In this document: positions 4,694 to 58,801 of the stretch, one piece after another | How the letters are laid out: the number at the start of each line of letters is the position of its first letter | How positions within the stretch are numbered: the stretch's first letter is position 1 | Origin: Candidatus Onthoplasma sp. | GTDB taxonomy: Bacteria; Bacillota; Clostridia; Christensenellales; UBA1242 | Assembly: GCA_045578345.1 (NCBI GenBank) | Contig: JAZNKB010000006.1 | Location: forward strand, 102,911 to 166,910 | Reading direction: 5' to 3' | Length of the DNA stretch: 64,000 nucleotides | Notes under the pieces: model-generated | The model's database searches: none | The model's input: the letters and a program-made list of their open reading frames with translations, nothing else | Told to the model about the DNA's origin: nothing | Position numbers and translations under genes: made by a program

Positions 4694-5104
4694 ATGAAAG
4701 CAATGGGAATTGATTTTGGGCTTGCTCGCATTGGCATAGCCCTCAGTGATGATACAAAGTTCTTGGCATCACCTTTTGAGACATATGGAAGAAAAGGCGA
4801 TGATCTTGATATTCAGCATTTAATTAATATCATAAAAACAAAGAATGTTGATGAAATTGTGTGTGGACTTCCAATGAACATGGCAGGAGAGGAACAAGAA
4901 ATTGCCAAAAAAACTCGTGAATTTATGGCAAAATTGGCCGAAAATGTTGATATTAAAATCGAGTTTGTTGACGAGCGTCTTTCATCACTTATGGCAGAAG
5001 AAATGTTAAAGGAAACGGAGCGCGATTGGAAGAAGAGAAAAGAAAAACTAGATGCGGTGGCGGCTTCAATCATATTGCAGGATTATCTTGATGTAGCTCG
5101 TTAG
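4694..5104 (+). CDS. ruvX: Holliday junction resolvase-like protein RuvX/YqgF
   Basis: MKAMGIDFGLARIGIALSD.. motif. Sits upstream of a DUF1292 gene as in Bacilli. Track ORF starts 18 nt earlier (4676). Confidence 0.85.
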   Translation: MKAMGIDFGLARIGIALSDDTKFLASPFETYGRKGDDLDIQHLINIIKTKNVDEIVCGLPMNMAGEEQEIAKKTREFMAKLAENVDIKIEFVDERLSSLMAEEMLKETERDWKKRKEKLDAVAASIILQDYLDVAR

Positions 5105-5499
5105 TTGCCACTCATTAAACGCGCTCATTTTGGCATACTTTGGCGCAAAGTAACCAAAATTCTCGCTAAGTCGTTCAGGCAAACAAACTTCGCTTTAAAT
5201 AAAATTTGGTGTAAGTCACAATCTAATCTTCAAACAATTAAACTTTGCATTACAAAAGAGAGTTTTATCTAAGTGTTGTTAGATTTGTCTTAATTCGTTG
5301 TTATCCTGAGCGTAGTCGAAGGATCTGTATAACAAAACCTTATGAATAATTGGCAAAAACTTCAACTTCACTGAGTTTCGTTTAGAATGACAGAATGGGA
5401 TAATGAATCAAAAAAGAAATACTTTAAGATTTATAACTTACTTAAATAGCTTGATTTTCACAAACTGTTTATGTTAAAATAAAGTTTAGGAGAATTAAA

Positions 5500-45805: not shown

Positions 45806-47036
45806 CATTGATAAAACAGCACTTGAAATTATCAATTCAAGCGAAAATTTATGTGTAGAAAAATTTAAAGAAATTGAAGAAATTGAATTCTATAATCAAT
45901 TAAAAGTTTTAAATGCTTTCAACAAACATGAAATTCAATCATATCATTTCATAGGAAGTACTGGATATGGTCATAATGATATAGGGAAAGATAAAATTTC
46001 TCAAGTTTTTGCAACCATTTTTAACACTGAAGATGCTTTTGTGAGCCCACTCATTAGTTGCGGAACTGAAGCAATTAGCCAATCATTGTTTGGAATTTTG
46101 CGACCAAACGACACAATGCTATGCATCTCAGGAACACCATATGACACCTTGAAAAATATCATATATGGAGTGGAGGGGAAAGACATTGGTTCACTTAAGG
46201 ATTACAACATTCATTATGACGAAGTTGAATTAGTGAATAATGATTTTGACATTCCTGAAATATTACAAAAAATTAAAGAATTAAACCCTAAAATGTTGTA
46301 TATTCAACGTTCACGTGGCTATTCGTTGAGAAATGCACTAAATATAGCACAAATTGAACGCGTTATCAAAGCAGTTAGAGAAGTTACTAACGCATATATT
46401 GTTGTTGACAATTGCTATGGTGAATTCACTGAAAAATTGGAACCAACAGATGTTGGAGCAGATTTAGTCATTGGTTCGCTACTAAAAAACATGGGCGGTG
46501 GAATTGCGCCAACTGGTGGCTATATTGCAGGGAAAAGTGAATTAGTTGAGCTTATTTCTTACAAGATGATGAGCCCTGCGCTTGGAGTAGATAATGGTTC
46601 TTATGAACCAGGCTATAAAGCCTTTTTTGAGGGAGTTTTTGTGTCACCGCACGTGGTTGCTCAAGCAAAAAAATTAGTTGTGCTCACAAGCGCCGTTATG
46701 CAAAATTTAGGCTATAAAACAGTTCCAAACCTTAATGAAACTTTATCAGATATCGTTTGTTGCATTAAGTTTAATGATAAAGATAAATTGGTGGAATTTA
46801 CACGCGCAATACAATATTCAAGCGCAATTGATAGCAACACAACATTAGTTGCTGGTGAAATGGACGGTTACGAAGATAAAATCATTATGGCAAGTGGAAG
46901 CTTCAATCAGGGAAGTTCAATTGAACTAAGTTGTGACGGACCTATGAGAGAACCATATGCAGGTTTCTTACAAGGTTGCTTAAGCTATCAACATGGAAAG
47001 ATTGGACTAATGAATGCAATAAAAACATTATTATAA
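45798..47036 (+). CDS. ynbB: YnbB-type PLP-dependent protein (aluminium-resistance family)
   Basis: STGYGHNDIGKD and VDNCYGEF segments match B. subtilis YnbB as I recall it. Confidence 0.8.
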   Translation: MISIDKTALEIINSSENLCVEKFKEIEEIEFYNQLKVLNAFNKHEIQSYHFIGSTGYGHNDIGKDKISQVFATIFNTEDAFVSPLISCGTEAISQSLFGILRPNDTMLCISGTPYDTLKNIIYGVEGKDIGSLKDYNIHYDEVELVNNDFDIPEILQKIKELNPKMLYIQRSRGYSLRNALNIAQIERVIKAVREVTNAYIVVDNCYGEFTEKLEPTDVGADLVIGSLLKNMGGGIAPTGGYIAGKSELVELISYKMMSPALGVDNGSYEPGYKAFFEGVFVSPHVVAQAKKLVVLTSAVMQNLGYKTVPNLNETLSDIVCCIKFNDKDKLVEFTRAIQYSSAIDSNTTLVAGEMDGYEDKIIMASGSFNQGSSIELSCDGPMREPYAGFLQGCLSYQHGKIGLMNAIKTLL

Positions 47037-47040
47037 TTAA

Positions 47041-47064
47041 AGGTGTCTTTTGACATCTTTTTTC
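47041..47064 (+). terminator. rho-independent terminator
   Basis: AGGTGTC/GACATCT stem plus T6. Confidence 0.65.
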
Positions 47065-47151
47065 TTGTGTTGACGACTAAATTGATAGGGTGGATTAGAA
47101 AAGATAAAGCAAATTTATAAGAAAATGCTTATAAGTTTATTAATATTTATA

Positions 47152-47335
47152 TGTGGACAAAAATGGAGCGGTGAAAAAGTTTATATTCATATCTTTGCGC
47201 AAAACTCTTCTTTTGCGCAAAGAATAATCGATTTTGAGAAAAAATCCTGTGGATATCGCTTCATTTGTCCACATTCTTGATTTTATTTGCTATATATTTT
47301 TATAATTCGACATCAAACCTACAATATTGTCCACA
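47152..47335. promoter_or_regulatory. cluster of four DnaA-box-like 9-mers
   Basis: TGTGGACAA 47152-47160, TGTGGATAT 47248-47256, TTGTCCACA 47265-47273, TTGTCCACA 47327-47335. Each is one mismatch from TTATCCACA. Confidence 0.55.
47192..47223. repeat. perfect 13-6-13 inverted repeat (candidate recombinase core site or operator)
   Basis: TCTTTGCGCAAAA CTCTTC TTTTGCGCAAAGA. Confidence 0.9.
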
Positions 47336-47362
47336 ACTATAATTTTACCTATTTTTCTTATT

Positions 47363-47889
47363 CTAAATCTGCGCTCACACGCATTTTGATTATTTTAAAT
47401 GAGTATTCTATCATTTAGTTTTATAATTTTTTTGTTTAACAAATATTGTAAAAAATCAAATTTAGTTTTGTATAATTTAAATGAACAATTTATCGTTTAA
47501 ATTTGTGTGAATGCGTCTCACAGCAGATTTCAAATTATTCATTAGATTTTTTTGATTTTAAATTCAAAGATTTGTAACACATCAAAATTTTATAAAATTT
47601 CAAATGAGGAATTGTTCATCTAAAAATTTTCCAATGCGTCTCAGCGCATTTTAGAATTTGATAATTTTTTTAAATTTTTCAAATGACATATCATTCATTT
47701 ATTTTAATAAGAATTCGTCTGAGAACGTTTCTAAAAAATAAGATATATCATATGTTTTTAGTTTTTTTGAAAGTTTAATTCTAAATGATGAATCCGTCAT
47801 CTTTTTTATTCAAAATCGCTCTGAGAGCATTTTTGCAAATGAACAATTCCTCATCTATTTTTAAGTCATTTTGTCTCAGCGCATTTTAA
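47363..47889. repeat. six copies of a 53-bp bipartite module (one inverted)
   Basis: Copies at 47363-47416 (inverted), 47479-47531, 47602-47654, 47681-47733, 47783-47835 and 47837-47889. Pattern: AAATGA-N8-TCATYT, 10-11 nt, AATGCGTCTCAGCGCATTTT-like hairpin. Confidence 0.85.
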
Positions 47890-48044
47890 GTTAATTGAAA
47901 AATTATGCTTAATTTTACATATTTATAATTTCCTTATCAAATTATTATCCTTTTGTTGTGATATAAGTTATTCAAATTAAAATTATGAAATTATATATGG
48001 ATTTGTAATATATAGTCGTATATCTGCTCATTTAAAAGAATTTA

Positions 48045-48067
48045 CATCTTTGCGTAAAAAACCAAAT
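48045..48067. repeat. left copy of a 22/23-bp inverted repeat
   Basis: CATCTTTGCGTAAAAAACCAAAT; its reverse complement, one A shorter, is at 51828-51849. Confidence 0.9.
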
Positions 48068-48121
48068 TCATATTATCATTCTAAACAAAGCCACAGAATC
48101 TCTCTTTAGTTTTAAGTTATA

Positions 48122-48154
48122 CAAAAAAATCCAACATTGTTGTGTTGGACTTTT
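48122..48154. terminator. bidirectional terminator-like hairpin
   Basis: A7, TCCAACA/TGTTGGA stem, CT5. Confidence 0.6.
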
Positions 48155-48182
48155 TATTTTCTAATTAGAATGCAATAGAAAT

Positions 48183-48211
48183 AAAACTCCAACTATTTTA
48201 GTTGGAGTTTT
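48183..48211. terminator. terminator hairpin after the 251-aa minus-strand gene
   Basis: 12-bp stem AAAACTCCAACT/AGTTGGAGTTTT. Confidence 0.75.
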
Positions 48212-48214
48212 ATT

Positions 48215-48970
48215 CTAATTATCAAATGTTTCACCCTTAAATTCTTCATTGAATTCTTGGCAATTTTTAAGTGCTTGCTTCATATAATCAATACTTTGCT
48301 CTGCCCTTTTGCCTGATTCCGTTATGGTTTTATTATCAGCATTTTCTTGCAACATTTCTTGTTCTTGCTTTAATTGGTTTAGCCTACGCATAAGTAAATT
48401 TTCTTCACTTTTTAACAATTCAGCAACATATTCTTGAGTATATTTAGATGTTTGTTCTTCACCGGTATTTTCTTTTTCTCTTTCTTTAATTAATTCTAAT
48501 TCAGAAAGTAAATTTGTTTTTTTAGTTTCATTTTCACTGATTTCTTCTTTAATTTCAACTTCCCTTTCTACTAAATCATCAAGATAAGATTTGTTTGATT
48601 GTTCGTATAATTTAACAAGTTTATCAAGATCTTTTAATCTTCTAGATTTCTTTAATTCCTTCCACTCTTTTCTTGTTAGTCCTAAACTTTTTAAAGATGG
48701 TTCCATTGTATATATCATCCCACCTAATAACAATCCTGTGGAAGCTCCCAAAATTGTTGTTACTGGTAAATATTGAATAAAGCTTGTTGCTAATGGATAT
48801 GCTAAAGCCAAAGGAACTATAAGACCCATAAATGGTGCCATAATTGATATAAACCAAAAGTTAAATTTCGCCCTTTTTTTCCTTAGTAAAGAATAAATAT
48901 AATCTACCTCATCTTTATTTAATTCATGTGCTTGCTTATTATATAAAACATTTCTAGTTTCTTGTGTCAT
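48215..48970 (-). CDS. membrane protein with long C-terminal coiled coil (251 aa)
   Basis: GGAGAAG RBS before ATG 48970 (MTQETRNV). Two TM segments, then a Glu/Lys-rich heptad-like region. Confidence 0.55.
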   Translation of the reverse strand: MTQETRNVLYNKQAHELNKDEVDYIYSLLRKKRAKFNFWFISIMAPFMGLIVPLALAYPLATSFIQYLPVTTILGASTGLLLGGMIYTMEPSLKSLGLTRKEWKELKKSRRLKDLDKLVKLYEQSNKSYLDDLVEREVEIKEEISENETKKTNLLSELELIKEREKENTGEEQTSKYTQEYVAELLKSEENLLMRRLNQLKQEQEMLQENADNKTITESGKRAEQSIDYMKQALKNCQEFNEEFKGETFDN

Positions 48971-48991
48971 ATTTTCTTCTCCGTTAAGCGA

Positions 48992-49020
48992 ATAATAGCA
49001 TACAATTGCTATTTTGTCAA
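48992..49020 (-). promoter_or_regulatory. sigma-A promoter for the 251-aa gene
   Basis: On the minus strand: TTGACA, 17 nt, TGc-TATTAT. Confidence 0.55.
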
Positions 49021-49051
49021 TAAAAAAGGTAATCAAAAAATTTAATTACCT
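49021..49051 (-). terminator. serS terminator
   Basis: AGGTAAT/ATTACCT stem with a U-run on the minus strand. Confidence 0.65.
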
Positions 49052-49060
49052 ATTTTAACA

Positions 49061-50347
49061 CTACTTCTTGGGTAATATTTTAGTTTTTCCACCCATATAT
49101 GGTTGTAACACCTTTGGAATATTGATAGAGCCATCAGGGTTATAGTTATTTTCTAAAAGTGCAATTAATCCACGAGGGCTTGCCAAAACTGTGTTATTTA
49201 AAGTGTGAGGATAGTATGTTCCATTCTCCCCTTTCACTCTAATTCCAAGACGACGTGATTGAGCGTCACCCAATGTTGAACAAGAACCAACTTCAAAGAA
49301 TTTTTGTTGACGTGGGCTCCAAGCTTCAATGTCACAAGATTTAACCTTCAAATCAGCCAAATCACCTGTGCAACAATCAAGCTGACGAACTGGTATATCT
49401 AAATTTCTGAACACTTCAACTGTGTATTGCCACATTTTATTGTACCAATCCATGCTATCTTCAGGTTTACAAAGAACAATCATTTCTTGTTTTTCAAATT
49501 GATGGACTCTGTAAATTCCTCTTTCTTCCAAGCCATGAGCACCACCTTCTTTTCTAAAGCAAGGGCTATAAGATGTTAATCTAATTGGAAGTTCAGTTTC
49601 TTTAATCATTTGGTCTTTAAATCTTCCAATCATTGAGTGTTCACTTGTTCCAATAAGATATAAGTCTTCACCTTCAATTTTATACATCATCGCATCCATT
49701 TCGGCAAAGCTCATAACACCTGTTACGACATCACTTCTAATCATAAATGGTGGAATTGCGTAAATAAAACCTTTTTCAATCATATAGTCTCTTGCATAGG
49801 CAATCATTGCTTCGTGAATTCTTGCTGCATCACCTAGCAAATAATAGAAACCTGCACCACTTGTTCTTCCTGCACTGTCTTTATCTAAACCGTTAATTCT
49901 TTCTAAAATGTCAGCATTATATGGAATTTCATATTTTGGCACAATAGCTTCACCAAAACGCTGAACTTCCACGTTTTCACTATCATCACGGCCTACAGGA
50001 ACACTGTCATCAACAATGTTAGGAATTGTCATCATAATTTGTTTGATTTTTGCTTCTAATTCTTCAACTTGTTTTTCAATTTCAGAAATACGTTCATTGT
50101 TTGCAACAACTTGAGCTTTAATAAGCTGAGCTTCATCAATTTTCTTTTCTTTCATTAAGGCACCAACTTGGTTAGAAAGAGTTTTTCTCATTGCACGCAA
50201 ATCATCACCTTCTTGCTTAATTAAACGCACTTGTTTATCTAATTCAAAAACCTCATCAACCAAAGGTAATTTATTGTCTTGGAATTTCTTTTTAATGTTT
50301 TCTTTAACCAACTCTCTGTTAGTTCTAATTAAATTAATATCTATCAT
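49061..50347 (-). CDS. serS: serine--tRNA ligase
   Basis: N-terminal coiled-coil arm; class II core (FRKEGGAHG.., GSCSTLGDAQSRRLGIR). Confidence 0.96.
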   Translation of the reverse strand: MIDINLIRTNRELVKENIKKKFQDNKLPLVDEVFELDKQVRLIKQEGDDLRAMRKTLSNQVGALMKEKKIDEAQLIKAQVVANNERISEIEKQVEELEAKIKQIMMTIPNIVDDSVPVGRDDSENVEVQRFGEAIVPKYEIPYNADILERINGLDKDSAGRTSGAGFYYLLGDAARIHEAMIAYARDYMIEKGFIYAIPPFMIRSDVVTGVMSFAEMDAMMYKIEGEDLYLIGTSEHSMIGRFKDQMIKETELPIRLTSYSPCFRKEGGAHGLEERGIYRVHQFEKQEMIVLCKPEDSMDWYNKMWQYTVEVFRNLDIPVRQLDCCTGDLADLKVKSCDIEAWSPRQQKFFEVGSCSTLGDAQSRRLGIRVKGENGTYYPHTLNNTVLASPRGLIALLENNYNPDGSINIPKVLQPYMGGKTKILPKK

Positions 50348-50357
50348 AATTTTCTCC

Positions 50358-50678
50358 TTATATTTCTTTTTCTTCTAAGCCTTCAAGATATATTCTATCT
50401 TTAAAAGCACCACGTTTTTTAACTTTTTCAAGTCTTATACTTTCAAATTCTTCGTACGACACGCCTTTACAATCTAATATTGCCCTCAAAACCTCTTCTA
50501 AATCAGCAAGTTCTTCAATTTCGCCACTTTCTAAATATTCTGCCAATTCTTCTTGAATTTTCATATTTAATTCAACAAGATATTCATCATCATTTAATTT
50601 TCTTGTTATACAGGATCGCCCTTCATTTTGTTCAATAATTTGCGGAATTTTATCTCTAACTAACTTATGATAACTCAT
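50358..50678 (-). CDS. MazG-like / PRA-PH-like nucleoside triphosphate pyrophosphohydrolase (106 aa)
   Basis: KLVRDKIPQII...EELAEYLE...EELADLEEVL...KKRGAF pattern. Confidence 0.7.
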   Translation of the reverse strand: MSYHKLVRDKIPQIIEQNEGRSCITRKLNDDEYLVELNMKIQEELAEYLESGEIEELADLEEVLRAILDCKGVSYEEFESIRLEKVKKRGAFKDRIYLEGLEEKEI

Positions 50679-51054
50679 TTTTTCCTCCTATAGTTTTGTA
50701 CTCATCTTTATCAGATTCCCATTGTCTCCATTGAGATTTCTCAAACTTTTTAATTGCATCTTTAAGATTTAATGCTTCTATAACCTTTGTCCATAAATGT
50801 GTGCTTATTTGAATTTCAGAAAAGGACTTATTTACCAAAATCACTTCGTTAACTTTTTCTGACAAATAACTTCCTTTATAAATACAATAAGCAATCAAAT
50901 TGGTATCTAAATATTTTTCACTTGAATAATACCCGCAAAAATATCCTTCTGCTGTGGTTTCACACTGTGAAAATAAGCCAACATAATATTCACCTTCTTT
51001 TAAAGGTTTTAGTCCATTAAGAGTTTGTTTTATTTGATTAACATAGAATTTCAT
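50665..51054 (-). CDS. hypothetical protein (129 aa)
   Basis: AAGGAGA RBS. First ORF after the T-box terminator. No family recognised. Confidence 0.5.
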   Translation of the reverse strand: MKFYVNQIKQTLNGLKPLKEGEYYVGLFSQCETTAEGYFCGYYSSEKYLDTNLIAYCIYKGSYLSEKVNEVILVNKSFSEIQISTHLWTKVIEALNLKDAIKKFEKSQWRQWESDKDEYKTIGGKNELS

Positions 51055-51061
51055 ATTTCTC

Positions 51062-51322
51062 CTTAAATAAAAAAAACACCTCTAAAAATTAATTTAGAGG
51101 TGATATTTAACCACTGTGCCACTCTATTTGAACATCTATATATTGTGTAATATATAAACATCCCACTCATTATGTTGCAAATTGTGCCATGCAATCGGCT
51201 CTGCATTACCAGATATCTCAAGAGGTAGACGCACAATGATTCAACAATTTGCTTTCACCAACCGCAAACTCTCTGATGCTTTCAACAATGTGCTAGTCTC
51301 TTTACAAACGATATATTTAACT
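51062..51322 (-). promoter_or_regulatory. T-box riboswitch leader, serine-specific
   Basis: On the minus strand: AGAGAG, distal-loop GGTTGGTGAAAG, GAA-UCA (UCU also nearby), T-box-like AAATAGAGTGGCACAGTGG. Terminator is CACCTCTAAA/TTTAGAGGTG plus U8 (51068-51102). Confidence 0.8.
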
Positions 51323-51328
51323 ATTTAA

Positions 51329-51357
51329 ATTTTAACAAATATTTTTCTTAATGTCAA
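51329..51357 (-). promoter_or_regulatory. promoter of the T-box operon
   Basis: On the minus strand: TTGACA, 17 nt, TAAAAT. Confidence 0.55.
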
Positions 51358-51380
51358 TAATTTTTTTTAATTTTGTTAAT

Positions 51381-51740
51381 TTAATATTCTGAATTTTGAA
51401 TTTGCAAAACTTCTGCGTTAGTTAAATCTTCAAAAGTTTCATAAGAAACCAATTCTTCTTTTGTTGACACGTCGTGCAAATTATAAGTTATATTTGATTC
51501 TTTATCACTTTTGATTCTAAGGAACAATTCATTCCCACTCAAATATTCCTCAATTTCTTTATTAAGGTCTGAAACATCAATTCCTAAGTATTTCATGAAA
51601 GTTTCAAAACTTGAATTTGCATACATATTTTCGCTAACAGCATTTCCATTTTCATCAATTTTGCCAATTTCAACGTAAACTTTTCCATTTTCCTTAATAT
51701 ATACATCTATATAATCATTCATAAATAATCTTATTGTCAT
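51381..51740 (-). CDS. hypothetical acidic protein (119 aa)
   Basis: AAAGGAGAAG RBS; own promoter; no family recognised. Confidence 0.5.
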   Translation of the reverse strand: MTIRLFMNDYIDVYIKENGKVYVEIGKIDENGNAVSENMYANSSFETFMKYLGIDVSDLNKEIEEYLSGNELFLRIKSDKESNITYNLHDVSTKEELVSYETFEDLTNAEVLQIQNSEY

Positions 51741-51768
51741 ATCTTCTCCTTTATTCCAATTGGTTGGT

Positions 51769-51796
51769 ATTATAACACAAAAATGTAATTTGTCAA
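51769..51796 (-). promoter_or_regulatory. sigma-A promoter (extended -10)
   Basis: On the minus strand: TTGACA, 16 nt, TGt-TATAAT. Confidence 0.55.
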
Positions 51797-51827
51797 TACC
51801 AAATATTTTTAAGTTAGTGCTTGAAAC

Positions 51828-51849
51828 ATTTGGTTTTTACGCAAAGATG
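51828..51849. repeat. right copy of the 22/23-bp inverted repeat
   Basis: ATTTGGTTTTTACGCAAAGATG; overlaps the -35 and spacer of the recombinase promoter. Confidence 0.9.
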
Positions 51850-51858
51850 AGTTATAAT
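51830..51858 (+). promoter_or_regulatory. promoter of the tyrosine recombinase gene
   Basis: TTGGTT 51830-51835, 17 nt, TATAAT 51853-51858. Confidence 0.55.
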
Positions 51859-51886
51859 TATCATAAGATAAATTTTCGGGGGTTTT

Positions 51887-52927
51887 ATGAGCAACAATTA
51901 TTATTTAGATAGAAATCGTAAGAACATGAGAAAACTTAATGAGATGCTTGCTGAATTGCCACCATTTTGCAGTGTGTTTTTCATTGGAATTCAAGACACA
52001 ACAACTCCGTTAACCCGATTAAATTATGCTGTTGATTTGAAGTTGTTCTTCAATTATTTGGTGACATATGAAACTCAATTTTTCAATCGTCAAATTCAGT
52101 CAATAACTATTGCTGATATTGACGAAATTGACTCCCAACTTATTGAAAGATTTATGGCTTATATTGCATATTACGATAAAGATGATGGCACTGTTTTAAC
52201 TAATGGCGAACGTGGAAAATTGCGCAAATTATCAAGTTTGAGAGCATTTTTTAAATATTTTTTCTGTAAGGATATGCTTAGAGCTAATGTTGCAAGCAAA
52301 GTTCGGTCTCCTAAACTTCACGAAAAACCAATTATTCGATTGGAAGAAAGTGAAACTGCAGAACTGATGTATTCATGCGACACACTATCTGGTTTTAGTG
52401 AACATCAAAAGAAGTATAATGAAAACTTTAAAACACGTGACAATGCTATTATTTCCCTATTTTTAACAACAGGGATACGTGTTAGTGAATGCGTTGGGCT
52501 CAATGTTGATGATATCAATTTCAACCTTAATTCGTTTAGAGTTACAAGAAAAGGAGGAAATCAAGTTATTCTATACTTTGGTGAAGAAACTGCTGAAATT
52601 TTAAAAAATTATCTTCTCTATCGCGACACACTTCAAATTCCAAAAGAAGAACAAGCTTTATTTATTTCAAGCCAAAAGAAACGCATGTCCGTTCGTTCAA
52701 TGGAATATTTGGTGAAAAAATATGCACGTGTGGCAACTCCACTTAAAAAAATTACACCACACAAACTTCGCTCCACTTATGGCACAAACCTTTATCGCGA
52801 AACCAAGGACATTTATATTGTTGCAGAGGTTTTAGGACATAAGGATGTTAACACAACAAAAAAACACTATGCAGCAATAACTGATGATGTAAGACGTTCT
52901 GTTGCAGGTGTTGTTAAATTGAAATAG
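51887..52927 (+). CDS. tyrosine recombinase, Xer family, long form (346 aa, XerS-like layout)
   Basis: Catalytic signature TGIRVSE (Arg), TRKGGN (Lys), HKLRST (HxxR), LGHKDVNTTKKHY (His..Tyr). Confidence 0.85.
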   Translation: MSNNYYLDRNRKNMRKLNEMLAELPPFCSVFFIGIQDTTTPLTRLNYAVDLKLFFNYLVTYETQFFNRQIQSITIADIDEIDSQLIERFMAYIAYYDKDDGTVLTNGERGKLRKLSSLRAFFKYFFCKDMLRANVASKVRSPKLHEKPIIRLEESETAELMYSCDTLSGFSEHQKKYNENFKTRDNAIISLFLTTGIRVSECVGLNVDDINFNLNSFRVTRKGGNQVILYFGEETAEILKNYLLYRDTLQIPKEEQALFISSQKKRMSVRSMEYLVKKYARVATPLKKITPHKLRSTYGTNLYRETKDIYIVAEVLGHKDVNTTKKHYAAITDDVRRSVAGVVKLK

Positions 52928-53071
52928 ATATAGTTGTTTCAACTATTGAAATACCATATATATTGTTAATAATTATTTAGTTTGAAATAAAATTATATGA
53001 TTATTAACTTTTTTTAAAAATAATTTACACCAAAATTTTTTAGCTATAAAATAAATAATTTTAAAATTTAT

Positions 53072-53085
53072 CGAACAAATGTTTG
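53072..53085 (+). promoter_or_regulatory. LexA (Cheo) box
   Basis: CGAACAAATGTTTG versus consensus CGAACATATGTTCG; overlaps the -35 of the lexA promoter. Confidence 0.7.
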
Positions 53086-53111
53086 ACAATCTTATACTTT
53101 TGTGTTATTCT
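53083..53111 (+). promoter_or_regulatory. lexA promoter
   Basis: TTGACA 53083-53088, 17 nt, TGt-TATTCT 53106-53111. Confidence 0.55.
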
Positions 53112-53155
53112 TTTTTTGATAATTGAGCAAAATTGCCAAAATTTTAGGAGAAAGC

Positions 53156-53743
53156 ATGGATAAAACTCAAGAAGTTTATGAATTTATTGAAGAATACATT
53201 TTTAAGAACAATTACCCACCAACAATAAGAGAAATTGGTGAAAGATTAAAACTTGACTCAACATCAAGTGTTGTTTATCACCTTAAAAAACTTGAAAATA
53301 TGGGTAAAATTACGCGTGGCGAAAATAAAAATCGTGCCATTGAATTAGCGGATAAACCAATGGTCAGCAGTGTCTCTCTTCCCGTAGTTGGCACAATTGC
53401 TGCAGGTCAACCAATCCTAGCAGAAGAAAATTGGACTGACAGAATTGTTATTAACGAAAATTTCTTTATGGGATCTAATTTGTTTGTTCTTAAAATTAAA
53501 GGTGATAGCATGATTGAAGCAGGAATTTTCGATGGAGATTATGTTGTTATCTCAAAGCAATCTGTTGCAAGAAATGGTGAAATTATGGCTTGTTTAATTG
53601 ATAATGAAGCAACAGTTAAAAGATTTTATAAAGAAAATGGTTTTTTTAGACTTCAACCTGAAAACTCTTCAATGAGTCCTATATACACCGATCATGTTGA
53701 AATCTTGGGTAAGGTTGTGGGTTTAATTAGAAATCATATTTAG
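53156..53743 (+). CDS. lexA: LexA repressor
   Basis: TAGGAG RBS before ATG 53156. wHTH N-terminus; VAAGQP cleavage region; KGDSM serine and ..ATVKRF lysine. Confidence 0.93.
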   Translation: MDKTQEVYEFIEEYIFKNNYPPTIREIGERLKLDSTSSVVYHLKKLENMGKITRGENKNRAIELADKPMVSSVSLPVVGTIAAGQPILAEENWTDRIVINENFFMGSNLFVLKIKGDSMIEAGIFDGDYVVISKQSVARNGEIMACLIDNEATVKRFYKENGFFRLQPENSSMSPIYTDHVEILGKVVGLIRNHI

Positions 53744-53849: not shown

Positions 53850-53901
53850 TTATTTATAAAATAAATAAAAAATGAGCGTTTTTTTGCTCAAAAGGGGTGT
53901 T

Positions 53902-55059
53902 ATGAAAACTGCTGATTTAATTCCTTTTATTCTTCTGGAACTAAATGAATGTGATAAATACGGTTTTGAATTAACAAAAGCGATAGAAACAAAATCTAAT
54001 GGTAAAATTATCATTAAACAACCAACTCTCTACACTCTACTTAAAAAACTTGAAAAATCAAAGTTTATTGCTTCTTATTGGGAAGATAGCGAAATTGGCG
54101 GAAAACGTCACTACTATAAGTTAACTGAAAATGGAAGGTTGCAAGTTTCAACTCTGCCTCCTTATGATTTTTTGTTGAAAAATGCTCTTAATGAAGATGT
54201 AGCATCTGATGAAACAATGGTAGAAATAAAACAATCTGAAACTTCTGAAAAAAGAGTTTCAATTATGGATCAACTACTCCCAACAAATGTGGAACCATCA
54301 GAAAGTATTTTACCAACAGAAGAAGTCTTTTCTGATAATAACATTGATAATTCAACTGAATTGGATATTAATGTTGCAAACACCGAGATTCTTAAAAATT
54401 CAAACACCGCTATTGATGAAGAGTTTGCAACAAGTGACGTTGTTTCGAAATTTACCGAAAAAGTTGAACCATCTCAAATAATTCACGAAACAAATCAAAC
54501 AAATGAAGCACATCAACCTTATAATTCCATTCTTGATGTTGATTTCACTATTCCAAAAAATGAAGCCGAAATTAAATTTGTTGACTATGTTGATTTTAAA
54601 AACTCTGATAACTACAAAAAATCTAAGAATATATCATATGCTATGCTTATTCAATCATTATCAACCAGTGCGAGTTTAATCCTTGTTGTTCTTTTAAGCG
54701 CTATTATTTCTTCATTTACAGGAAGAACCTCTTTATATTATGCGTTTTTTATCCCTTCAATTTTAATTACACTGTTCTACCCTATTGTGGTTGCAGTTAA
54801 TTTACATAAGATGAGACTAAAATATCAGGCAGTTCAATTTAATACAAAAATTAAACAACGTTTATACATAGGAATTTGTTTATTCTTAATGGTCTTAGTA
54901 GTCTGTATAATTGTTAATATTAAAATGAAGAACAACACTTTAATTCTTATATTAGAATTTCAAAATTTCGAGAGTTTTTATGCTCCACTGATGATGACTT
55001 CTGTATACTTTATCGATTTATTATTTAAACATTTGTTTATGTCAAAATTTAACAAATAG
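53902..55059 (+). CDS. PadR-family wHTH regulator fused to a low-complexity linker and C-terminal multi-TM domain
   Basis: GFELTKAIE...KQPTLYTLLKKLEKSKFIASYWED..GGKRHYYKLTENG PadR core. An acidic/Asn-rich linker follows, then 4-5 hydrophobic segments. Confidence 0.75.
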   Translation: MKTADLIPFILLELNECDKYGFELTKAIETKSNGKIIIKQPTLYTLLKKLEKSKFIASYWEDSEIGGKRHYYKLTENGRLQVSTLPPYDFLLKNALNEDVASDETMVEIKQSETSEKRVSIMDQLLPTNVEPSESILPTEEVFSDNNIDNSTELDINVANTEILKNSNTAIDEEFATSDVVSKFTEKVEPSQIIHETNQTNEAHQPYNSILDVDFTIPKNEAEIKFVDYVDFKNSDNYKKSKNISYAMLIQSLSTSASLILVVLLSAIISSFTGRTSLYYAFFIPSILITLFYPIVVAVNLHKMRLKYQAVQFNTKIKQRLYIGICLFLMVLVVCIIVNIKMKNNTLILILEFQNFESFYAPLMMTSVYFIDLLFKHLFMSKFNK

Positions 55060-57765: not shown

Positions 57766-57796
57766 CAAAAAAAGGACTAAATTTAGTCCTTTTTTA
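57766..57796. terminator. bidirectional rho-independent terminator
   Basis: A-run, AGGACTAA/TTAGTCCT stem, T6, between convergent genes. Confidence 0.8.
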
Positions 57797-58801
57797 TTGA
57801 TGTTTTGCAATTTCTCCTGTTGCAAGTTCGTCACAACGATTATTATACTTATTGTCTGCATGGCCTTTAACTTTAATCCATTTTATTTTGTGCGTATTAT
57901 TAAATTCAATCAATTTTTGCCACAATTCAACATTCGCAACTGGTTTTTTGTTCGCATTTTTAAATCCATTCATTTGCCAACTTGTTATCCAATCCTCATT
58001 AAAAGCATTAATTAAATATGCACTATCACTATATAAGTCAACTTCGCAAGGAACTTTAAGTTTATCTAGCGCCATAATTGCAGCGGTCAATTCCATTTGA
58101 TTGTTTGTTGTGTTTTCTTGATAACCACTGATTTCTTTCATTGTTTCACCATGGAATAACACTGCTCCCCATCCACCAACACCAGGATTGCCACTGCACG
58201 CGCCGTCTGTGTATATAACAACCTTATCTGGTTTAGTTTCACTTGGATTATCTTCCAAATCAATTTCTTCATATAAAATTGAATACACAACCACATCATG
58301 CCTTGAATGAAGATTATTTTTTCCTGCTTTACGCATTGTCCCTTCATAGGTCATTCCAGCACGTTTCATAACATTACCACTTTTTTCATTCAATGTGTCG
58401 TGCATACAAACAATTCTCTTTGCGATGTTGTTTGCTTTAATATATTTAAAAGCTCCTTTAAGGGTTTCAGTCATATAACCATAACCTTGATATTTTGGAT
58501 TTAAAACATAACCAATTTCTAGGATTCCGTCATTTTTTTGTTTGTAATCCATAAGACCAATTGCACCAATAACCTTGTTTTCAGCTTTCAGATGAATTGC
58601 ATATTCATGTTCTACTTTATCTTGTTTGTATTCGTCCAATAAATAGTCAATTCTAGCAATGGCAGTTTGTATATCTTTATAAGTTGGCCAACTCAAAAAT
58701 TTAGTCACTTCATCATTACTTGCATATTCATACAAATCCAAATAATCTTTTTCTTCCCATTGTCTAATTATTAGTCTTTCAGTTTCATAAACAATTTTCA
58801 T
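57794..58801 (-). CDS. fusion protein: RimJ/RimL-type GNAT N-acetyltransferase plus RNase HI
   Basis: N-terminal ERLIIRQWEEKDY...QGYGYMTE GNAT. C-terminal IYTDGACSGNPGVGGWG...NNQMEL...DSAYL...GHADNKYNNRCDELA RNase H. Confidence 0.85.
   Translation of the reverse strand: MKIVYETERLIIRQWEEKDYLDLYEYASNDEVTKFLSWPTYKDIQTAIARIDYLLDEYKQDKVEHEYAIHLKAENKVIGAIGLMDYKQKNDGILEIGYVLNPKYQGYGYMTETLKGAFKYIKANNIAKRIVCMHDTLNEKSGNVMKRAGMTYEGTMRKAGKNNLHSRHDVVVYSILYEEIDLEDNPSETKPDKVVIYTDGACSGNPGVGGWGAVLFHGETMKEISGYQENTTNNQMELTAAIMALDKLKVPCEVDLYSDSAYLINAFNEDWITSWQMNGFKNANKKPVANVELWQKLIEFNNTHKIKWIKVKGHADNKYNNRCDELATGEIAKHQ

Follow-up and report, generated by a model that had tools for sequence, protein, structure and literature searches.

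The stretch of DNA analysed here, hereafter the window, comprises 64 kb of a contig (JAZNKB010000006.1) assigned to Candidatus Onthoplasma sp.; our interest is in a perfect palindrome at 47192–47223, considered below as a candidate dif-type recombination site, and in the gene for a 346-amino-acid (346-aa) tyrosine recombinase that lies to its right. To the left of the palindrome, the + strand carries a miaB-like gene, mutS, mutL, miaA and a methionine-gamma-lyase-family gene that ends at 47036. There follows a non-coding AT-rich stretch of 1.18 kb, in which the palindrome is embedded, and then, on the − strand between 48215 and 51740, a gene for a 273-aa protein, serS and three small genes. 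Beyond these, the recombinase gene, lexA, a PadR-like gene and an ABC transporter are again on the + strand. The orientation switch described in the initial annotation of this DNA, from the + strand up to 47036 to the − strand over 48215–51740, is borne out.

The palindrome reads TCTTTGCGCAAAA CTCTTC TTTTGCGCAAAGA, and no other perfect 13-6-13 inverted repeat occurs in the window (n = 1, against an expectation of 0.0055 from base composition); none of 30 shuffled windows yielded such a repeat. Two 13-bp arms around an asymmetric 6-bp centre correspond to the core geometry of tyrosine-recombinase sites. The arms are AT-rich except for GCGC, and within each of them is a self-complementary 10-mer, TTTGCGCAAA. 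Across the whole window, copies of the arm with a single mismatch (TCTTTGCGTAAAA) occur at 48047–48059 (+) and 51835–51847 (−), and there are no further copies with fewer than two mismatches; those with two, including one at 5139–5151, number seven against 5.7 expected, i.e. the chance level. Thus, the initial annotation was accurate as regards the exactness of the palindrome, the positions and single mismatch of the two lone arms, and the lack of further good copies, the rest having at least two mismatches at a chance count. The weak relative that it had noted at 5138–5152 can be set aside, being a short isolated palindrome with two mismatches, at chance frequency. The region has no Rfam match at gathering thresholds, relaxed thresholds giving only sub-threshold noise over 46900–48300; moreover, the intergenic segment 47037–48214 has no match in the phage collection and contains no credible small open reading frame (ORF). 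The features discussed are collected in Table 1.

Table 1. Features of the window that bear on the palindrome and the recombinase gene
Feature	Position	Strand	Details
DnaA-box-like TGTGGA/TCCACA motifs	47152–47160, 47248–47256, 47265–47273, 47327–47335		Flank the core; link to the system uncertain
Putative dif-type core site	47192–47223		Left arm 47192–47204, centre CTCTTC 47205–47210, right arm 47211–47223
Second single arm, TCTTTGCGTAAAA	48047–48059	+	Present at the equivalent place in L001, L003, L005 and L016
Putative recombinase promoter	51830–51858	+	−35 TTGGTT 51830–51835 (weak), 17-nt spacer, −10 TATAAT 51853–51858
Single dif arm, candidate autoregulatory operator	51835–51847	−	Reads TTTTACGCAAAGA on the + strand; inside the recombinase promoter
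346-aa tyrosine recombinase, XerS-like	51887–52927	+	R198, K222, H292, R295, H318 and Y328 present
lexA	53123–53743	+	TIGR00498, 206 bits; frequent neighbour of the module, context rather than mechanism

The recombinase and the conserved gene–site module

No tyrosine recombinase other than this one is encoded in the window. Pfam recognizes only the catalytic Phage_integrase domain, whereas among the NCBIfam models XerS comes top with 175 bits, followed by XerA, XerC and XerD, and residues 11–337 align with positions 4–350 of the 360-position XerS model. Ten other members of the family score 176–214 bits, with XerS top each time and all of them under the equivalog cut-off of 267 bits (NF003462). 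Since XerS is the top profile, but the score falls below this threshold, we treat the protein as a XerS relative; it looks like one that shares the same long layout, rather than XerS itself. The layout predicted in the initial annotation is therefore supported by the best NCBIfam match and its full-length alignment, while classification by profile hidden Markov models upholds XerS as the closest family and stops short of the curated assignment (175 versus 267 bits). The six residues given for the protein in Table 1 are invariant in 32 homologues. Among solved structures, XerD is the best match for the C-terminal two thirds (132 bits for its catalytic part), and XerH (PDB code 5jjv) is the only one that aligns with the family over its full length (68 bits against the family profile). 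Homologues with 83–100% identity are numerous in metagenomes, and the few with a source name come from Clostridia or Clostridiales bins.

The palindrome is retained with the recombinase. In the loci L001, L003 and L005, whose recombinases are, respectively, 93, 89 and 85% identical to that of the window, the 32-mer is kept as TCTTTGCGCAAAAC[T/C]CTTCTTTTGCGCAAAG[A/T] while the intergenic flanks diverge, and both lone arms are found at equivalent positions; conservation in relatives, proposed in the initial annotation as a check, is thus observed. A recombinase search of the full library gave 727 representative clusters with E < 1e-30, and the best of these matches are mostly some 340–360 aa long and aligned from end to end. 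We then scanned one genome per species, giving 80 loci labelled as Christensenella/Christensenellaceae, Lachnospiraceae (including Roseburia, Hungatella, Enterocloster and Blautia) and other Clostridia. A simple inverted-repeat filter detected a 13-6-13 palindrome in 58 of these, and a weight matrix built from those sites added a further eight; in all 66 of the 80 species loci with a palindrome of this type, it lies upstream of the orthologous recombinase gene, at a distance of no more than 400 bp in 36 of them. Wherever the inverted-repeat filter was applied, there was one site per locus. The arm consensus across the 66 sites is ACTATTCG[T/C]AAAA, of which the window arm is a variant, and the arms are perfectly symmetric in 21 species. 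For the centre, the consensus is [C/G]ACA[A/G][C/G]; although the arms are symmetric, 30 of the 66 loci (L089–L168) have this centre in the opposite orientation with respect to the gene.

This arrangement of gene plus site is the one described for XerS/difSL and XerH/difH (PMC5357621). The initial proposal that the palindrome is the core site of the neighbouring recombinase gains from this linkage, and we consider it very probable that the enzyme acts there. One monomer would bind and cleave at each of the identical 13-bp arms, and strand exchange would take place across the asymmetric 6-bp centre, which would give the site its polarity.

Microvirus prophages at the site

Six different prophages of the Microviridae, small phages with single-stranded DNA, adjoin the site or its species variants; no integrase gene was seen in them, and for three both junctions are visible. 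The clearest case is provided by L005 and L006, which encode an identical recombinase protein: the site is uninterrupted in L005, whereas L006 has 5.3 kb of extra DNA inserted exactly at the palindrome. The left junction in L006 reads TCTTTGCGCAAAA CCCTTC CTTTACGCAAAAA, corresponding to host arm, centre and a degenerate phage arm, and the right junction is a perfect dif. The inserted DNA encodes a capsid protein (Phage_F), a scaffold protein (Chlamy_scaf), Phage_ORF5, a rolling-circle Rep (REP_ORF2-G2P) and a helix–turn–helix repressor. None of its called genes matches Phage_integrase, and the only ones of at least 150 aa are those for the capsid protein (560 aa), Rep (350 aa) and the scaffold protein (167 aa), all of which belong to non-integrase families; the same gene set recurs in L016, L075, L171 and L173.

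The five further prophages (L016, L075, L010, L171 and L172 plus L173) have capsids that are 58–69% identical to that of L006, and each lies beside serS, the gamma-lyase gene or the recombinase gene. The adjacent sites are ACTTTGCGTAAAA CAATAC TTTTACGCAAAGT in L016, TCTATTCGCAAAA GCATAG TTTTGCGAATAAA in L075 (where the recombinase is 52% identical to that of the window) and TCTATTCCAAAAA CCTGTG TTTTGCGAATAGT in L010. The prophage in L171 has a hybrid junction ending in the arm AACTTACGCAAAA together with a perfect site, and that represented by L172 and L173, which derive from the same sample, has a junction with no recognizable second arm, again together with a perfect site; the hybrid/perfect pattern of L006 is therefore repeated in these loci, with different phage arms. 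Wherever both host flanks could be placed, the phage is on the gamma-lyase side and the perfect site on the serS/recombinase side. In the clade of the window, the phage mimic extends some 40 bp past the arm, as far as a TGTGGA box.

A precedent is offered by the gokushoviruses of Escherichia coli, whose integration next to dif requires XerC, XerD and both halves of a phage-borne dif mimic (PMC7062461). The junctions here have the same anatomy, an argument for strand exchange by a host tyrosine recombinase within the palindrome, at its centre. As in the gokushovirus prophages (PMC7062461) and CTX phage, no integrase gene is seen, the element carries a partial dif mimic and is integrated next to dif, the bacterial dif is left intact on one side and the phage-side arm is degenerate; the differences are that a single XerS-like recombinase would be exploited and that the hosts are gut Clostridia. 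Such temperate microviruses would bring one good arm and a centre, and the host enzyme would insert them on the methionine-gamma-lyase side; because of the degenerate second phage arm, a perfect dif would result on the serS/recombinase side, and a poor hybrid site on the other. The site would, thereby, identify both the hosts and the lysogeny mechanism of a clade of gut Microviridae. Published searches for microvirus lysogeny reportedly used XerCD-type dif profiles, which are unlike the arms described here.

Two other explanations of the palindrome can be weighed against these junctions. According to the first, which the initial annotation had put forward as the main alternative, an ordinary transcription factor (LexA, a PadR-like protein or another) has its operators in the palindrome and the lone arms, and the proximity of the recombinase gene is only regulatory. 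The self-complementary 10-mer in each arm is a property shared with many operators, one lone arm lies over a promoter, and lexA and a padR-like gene are located just downstream. However, integrase-less prophages with recombinant junctions precisely at the centre of the site contradict this reading, as does the 13-6-13 geometry with its asymmetric centre, and the full site in the window lies between convergent genes, away from promoters. Moreover, the LexA (Cheo) box GAAC-N4-GTTC is absent from the palindrome and from both lone arms; the sole such box within 51700–53200, CGAACAAATGTTTG at about 53073, is upstream of lexA itself. The site also tracks the recombinase gene and not lexA, which is no more than 8 kb from that gene in 50 of 80 loci and directly downstream of it in only 15 of 72. 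We regard an operator function of this kind as very improbable. The same counts indicate that the gene for the SOS repressor is habitually found near the terminus module in these Clostridia.

The second explanation, that the palindrome is a structural element such as a bidirectional terminator and that the prophages integrate by some other route, for instance via their HUH Rep, seems to us more improbable still. It would suit a palindrome between convergent genes and microviruses that encode a rolling-circle Rep, but the arms are AT-rich apart from GCGC, and a terminator scan did not report the palindrome, while it did report separate terminator-like hairpins at 47039 and 48130, i.e. after each of the two convergent genes. 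Furthermore, most species have the site upstream of the recombinase gene and not between convergent genes, and at the prophage junctions arm and centre stay in register, as strand exchange inside the centre would predict.

An exact search of IMG/VR with arm plus centre retrieved only two unrelated, GC-richer contigs (L007 and L008), which we judged to be chance matches, and the predicted attL/attP 30-mer had no exact match in the JGI metagenome contigs. The left end of the L075 prophage (100–200) presents a lone arm and, after it, another complete 13-6-13 site, ACTATTTGCAAAA AAGGGC TTTTGCGGATAGG, and inverted copies of GGAAGTTATAA are found at its two ends (100–200 and 5030–5095). This recalls the paired inverted sites of CTX phage, which fold into a single-stranded attP.

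Skew, the replication terminus and known Xer systems

To our knowledge, chromosome dimer resolution is close to universal. The dif site of much of the class Clostridia has, however, not been pinned down, and this gap would be filled by a module of recombinase and site that, in dozens of species, coincides with the skew switch. Where replication forks converge in Firmicutes, the top strand is G-rich to the left and the bottom strand G-rich to the right. We measured skew on local stretches of 17–64 kb, and in the window the cumulative G-C maximum falls at 47179, 13 bp before the palindrome. The mean top-strand GC skew of + strand genes is +0.160 to the left of the site and +0.046 to the right, and that of − strand genes is −0.085 and −0.209, respectively; as genes on the same strand differ in skew across the site, a strand-independent skew component changes sign there. 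To the left, 41 of 44 genes are on the + strand. Of the 47 loci that extend for 3 kb or more to both sides of the site, 45 have a greater skew to the left of it than to the right, and in 38 the skew is positive on the left and negative on the right; in all loci, the orientation was chosen such that the recombinase gene is a + strand gene to the right of the site, and this imposes a bias opposite to the result. Additionally, 14 of 51 loci have their local skew maximum no more than 500 bp from the site, compared with 4.4 loci on average, and never more than 12, in 2000 null trials. The terminus location suggested in the initial annotation thus finds support both in the window, where the skew maximum is 13 bp from the site, and across the species, with left exceeding right in 45 of 47 loci.

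In our judgement, the palindrome is likely to serve a single-recombinase Xer system as its dif-type core site for recombination, situated at the replication terminus, and, with slightly less assurance, it is probably also the site at which this organism resolves chromosome dimers. Sister sites on a dimer would recombine at the terminus to give chromosome monomers, and recombination would presumably be licensed by a translocase of the FtsK/SpoIIIE type, as for XerS. Two oligomers are distributed unequally about the site: GAAGAAG occurs in the two orientations in the ratio 20:2 on the left and 2:4 on the right, and GAAAAGA in the ratio 21:0 on the left and 0:6 on the right. Such counts are compatible with FtsK-orienting motifs, but they are confounded by gene orientation, and we have not used them as evidence.

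A less favoured possibility is that the recombinase does act on the palindrome, to which phages also attach, but that dimers are resolved by XerC/XerD at a canonical dif elsewhere in the terminus region, the module being a relic or domesticated integration module, or serving autoregulation only. XerC and XerD are reported to be of ancient origin in Firmicutes and to occur there widely (PMC8136486), both XerCD and XerS are cited for Lactobacillus helveticus (PMC3025954), and some loci contain loose matches to a Bacillus-type dif, e.g. L112 (4576) and L160 (4395). Yet the match in L160 is inside a gene, and that in L112 overlaps a ribosome-binding site; in the window there are likewise only loose matches, none of them intergenic, and the best (34429) is inside a gene, so that no credible canonical dif is seen. 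Conservation of the module over a large number of contigs from Clostridia is consistent with a core function, and the skew switches at the site both in the window and in the majority of species. In a survey of canonical dif sites, moreover, the predictions for Clostridium botulinum fall 137–175 degrees from the skew shift, and there is no prediction for C. perfringens or C. beijerinckii (PMC3025954 supplement). We therefore regard resolution by XerC/XerD at another site as unlikely. If the module has the function proposed, and is shared by such species, it would account for the clostridia in which a canonical dif is not predicted or is placed far from the terminus.

Besides the wide distribution of XerC and XerD, several observations weigh against dimer resolution at the palindrome by the linked recombinase. 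The XerS score of 175 bits is under the curated cut-off. The site and the recombinase gene are not adjacent in the window, being 4663 bp apart with serS and four other genes between them, and 14 of the 80 loci have no site within 8 kb. Only seven of the 13 genes to the right of the site are on the − strand, and the skew switch coincides with the switch in gene orientation, which is the source of part of the signal. Finally, no free circular phage with the predicted attP was found in IMG/VR or the JGI metagenome contigs.

Several single-recombinase systems are recognized, namely XerS, XerH in Epsilonproteobacteria, XerA in archaea and XerL in Legionellales (PMC5357621, PMC9765430), of which XerS/difSL, described for streptococci and lactococci (PMC1914069, PMC5357621), is the closest to that proposed here. 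Both have a single long recombinase (346 aa here and 356 aa for XerS) with the XerS profile as the best, full-length match, gene and site form one module near the terminus for XerS/difSL and probably here as well, and in both the inner arms are T-rich/A-rich around a CG or CCG core. The difSL arms, for which the initial annotation had named a TTTT..GAAA type that is confirmed, are TTTCCGAAAA / TTTTCTTGAAA (PMC5357621), compared with ACTATTCGCAAAA / TTTTGCGAATAGT in the present family and CTTTGCGCAAAA in the window. The differences are nevertheless substantial: the scores here are 175–214 bits against the cut-off of 267; the site is a symmetric 13-6-13, often perfect, whereas difSL is 31 bp long, its arms being unequal and imperfect and its unusually long centre described as 11 bp (PMC5357621); the hosts are Clostridia; in the clade of the window the full site is 2–5 kb from the gene, with a half-site alone at the promoter; and microvirus prophages are present at the site, which is the one of the two that was surveyed for mobile elements.

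The remaining systems are more distant. XerH/difH of Helicobacter and Campylobacter (PDB codes 5jjv and 5jk0) also combines a single long recombinase with a site near its gene, but the sequence relation is weak (68 bits versus 132 for the catalytic part of XerD), and the hosts belong to a different phylum. The dif/XerL system resembles the present one in having a single recombinase, long uninterrupted inverted-repeat arms, a terminus site and a dif that was revealed via an integrated mobile element; in contrast, XerL has no detectable homology to XerC, XerD, XerS or XerH, and in Legionella pneumophila the gene and site are more than 400 kb apart (PMC9765430). The Bacillus XerCD/dif system (ACTTCCTAGAATATATATTATGTAAACT) shares the 6-bp centre, the inverted arms, the terminus location and the presumed function, but its arms have no sequence similarity to those here, and it employs two unlinked paralogues rather than one linked recombinase gene.

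In the open-access literature, we found no description of a XerS-like or single-recombinase dif in Clostridia or Lachnospiraceae, although a prior one is possible. On balance, we incline, by a narrow margin, towards the broadest proposal: that a previously undescribed, XerS-related single-recombinase Xer/dif system, widespread in Clostridia, is the true dimer resolution system of these gut anaerobes, and at the same time provides the missing integration site by which a clade of gut microviruses is temperate on Firmicutes and, in one clade of hosts, a means of self-repression via a lone arm that evolves together with dif. The module would then serve as an exact marker of the terminus in fragmentary metagenome-assembled genomes. 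A perfectly palindromic site would also raise the question of how a single recombinase orders strand exchange when only the 6-bp centre is asymmetric.

The promoter half-site and neighbouring sequences

The lone arm at 51835–51847 covers the last base of the −35 hexamer TTGGTT and 12 of the 17 spacer bases, with TATAAT 5 nt further on. A consensus promoter scan gives TTTACG-17-TATCAT instead, and the arm is within the promoter core under either reading, as the initial annotation, which placed it over the recombinase promoter, would have it. L001 and L003 share the arrangement arm-N5-TATAAT, and in L005 the hexamer at this position is TAATAT. In eight distant species, in which the full site is 0.8–4.1 kb from the gene, a lone arm likewise occurs 53–78 nt upstream of the start codon. 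It differs from the dif arms of its own species at no position in L092 and L093 (TTTTACGCATAGA), at one in L095 and L108, and at two in L089, L096, L099 and L128; the estimated chance of a 13-mer match with at most one mismatch in 260 bp is approximately 3e-4 per locus. Lachnospiraceae-type loci with a distal site do not have a promoter half-site, indicating that it is a feature of one clade.

Given that the half-site changes together with the arms of the species, it fits a single protein reading both, and so supports regulation by the recombinase of its own gene, an idea already present in the initial annotation and now extended to these eight species, with their zero to two mismatches. By occupying the lone arm, the recombinase would repress its own promoter, and the enzyme would be titrated against its own synthesis. 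That the site may be part of the recombinase promoter has been raised, and left open, for difSL/xerS; a lone promoter arm that changes with the dif arms would constitute a directly testable case of autoregulation by a Xer recombinase.

The two lone arms of the window form part of a longer inverted repeat, 48044–48066 and 51829–51850 (CATCTTTGCGTAAAAA[A]CCAAAT; 22/23 nt), which brackets the serS segment. The relatives have the same arrangement of lone arms around serS alone, and the pair resembles a dif-type site split by, or flanking, the serS segment. We considered whether the region from dif to 48047 might be a decayed integrated element, but this is not supported, there being no second arm beyond the lone arm.

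DnaA-box-like 9-mers (TTATCCACA with at most one mismatch) are concentrated around the palindrome, with four of the 16 in the window falling within 184 bp, at offsets from the core of about −41, +24, +44 and +110. These offsets are kept in L001, L003, L005, L016 and L089, the perfect box TTATCCACA is present in several relatives, and the −41 box is also seen in the phage-derived left flanks of L006 and L016. Such boxes are not a general feature of the site, since across the species loci their density is 0.33/kb near the site and 0.30/kb elsewhere; the enrichment is confined to the clade of the window.

Further into the intergenic region, 47370–47890 contains five or six degenerate copies of a module of approximately 55 nt, consisting of AAATGA-N8-TCATCTAAA, some 10 nt, and then a small hairpin, AATGCG-TCTCAG-CGCATTTT (the module can also be written AAATGA-N8-TCATCTAAA ... 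AATGCGTCTCAGCGCA). The copies are restricted to this intergenic region, and fewer are present in L001, L003 and L005. The module has no Rfam match, no phage match and no consistent ORF; its first half is loosely LexA-box-like (GAAC-AATT-GTTC).

The four genes in 48215–49036 and 50358–51740, between dif and the recombinase gene, are absent from this position in L001, L003 and L005, where serS alone intervenes. They encode the 273-aa protein, whose C-terminal half is rich in lysine and glutamate, and three others, of 106, 129 and 119 aa; no significant family match exists for any of the four. Downstream of lexA, a 395-aa protein (53872–55059, +) combines an N-terminal PadR DNA-binding domain with a long C-terminal part that includes hydrophobic stretches, and is followed by the ABC transporter pair, an arrangement kept in all close relatives. 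Finally, a 335-aa ORF at 57794–58801 (−) is RNase H-like in its C-terminal half; its 333-aa counterpart in L001 has GNAT acetyltransferase and RNase H Pfam domains, and in L003 and L005 its place is taken by a 147-aa RNase H alone.

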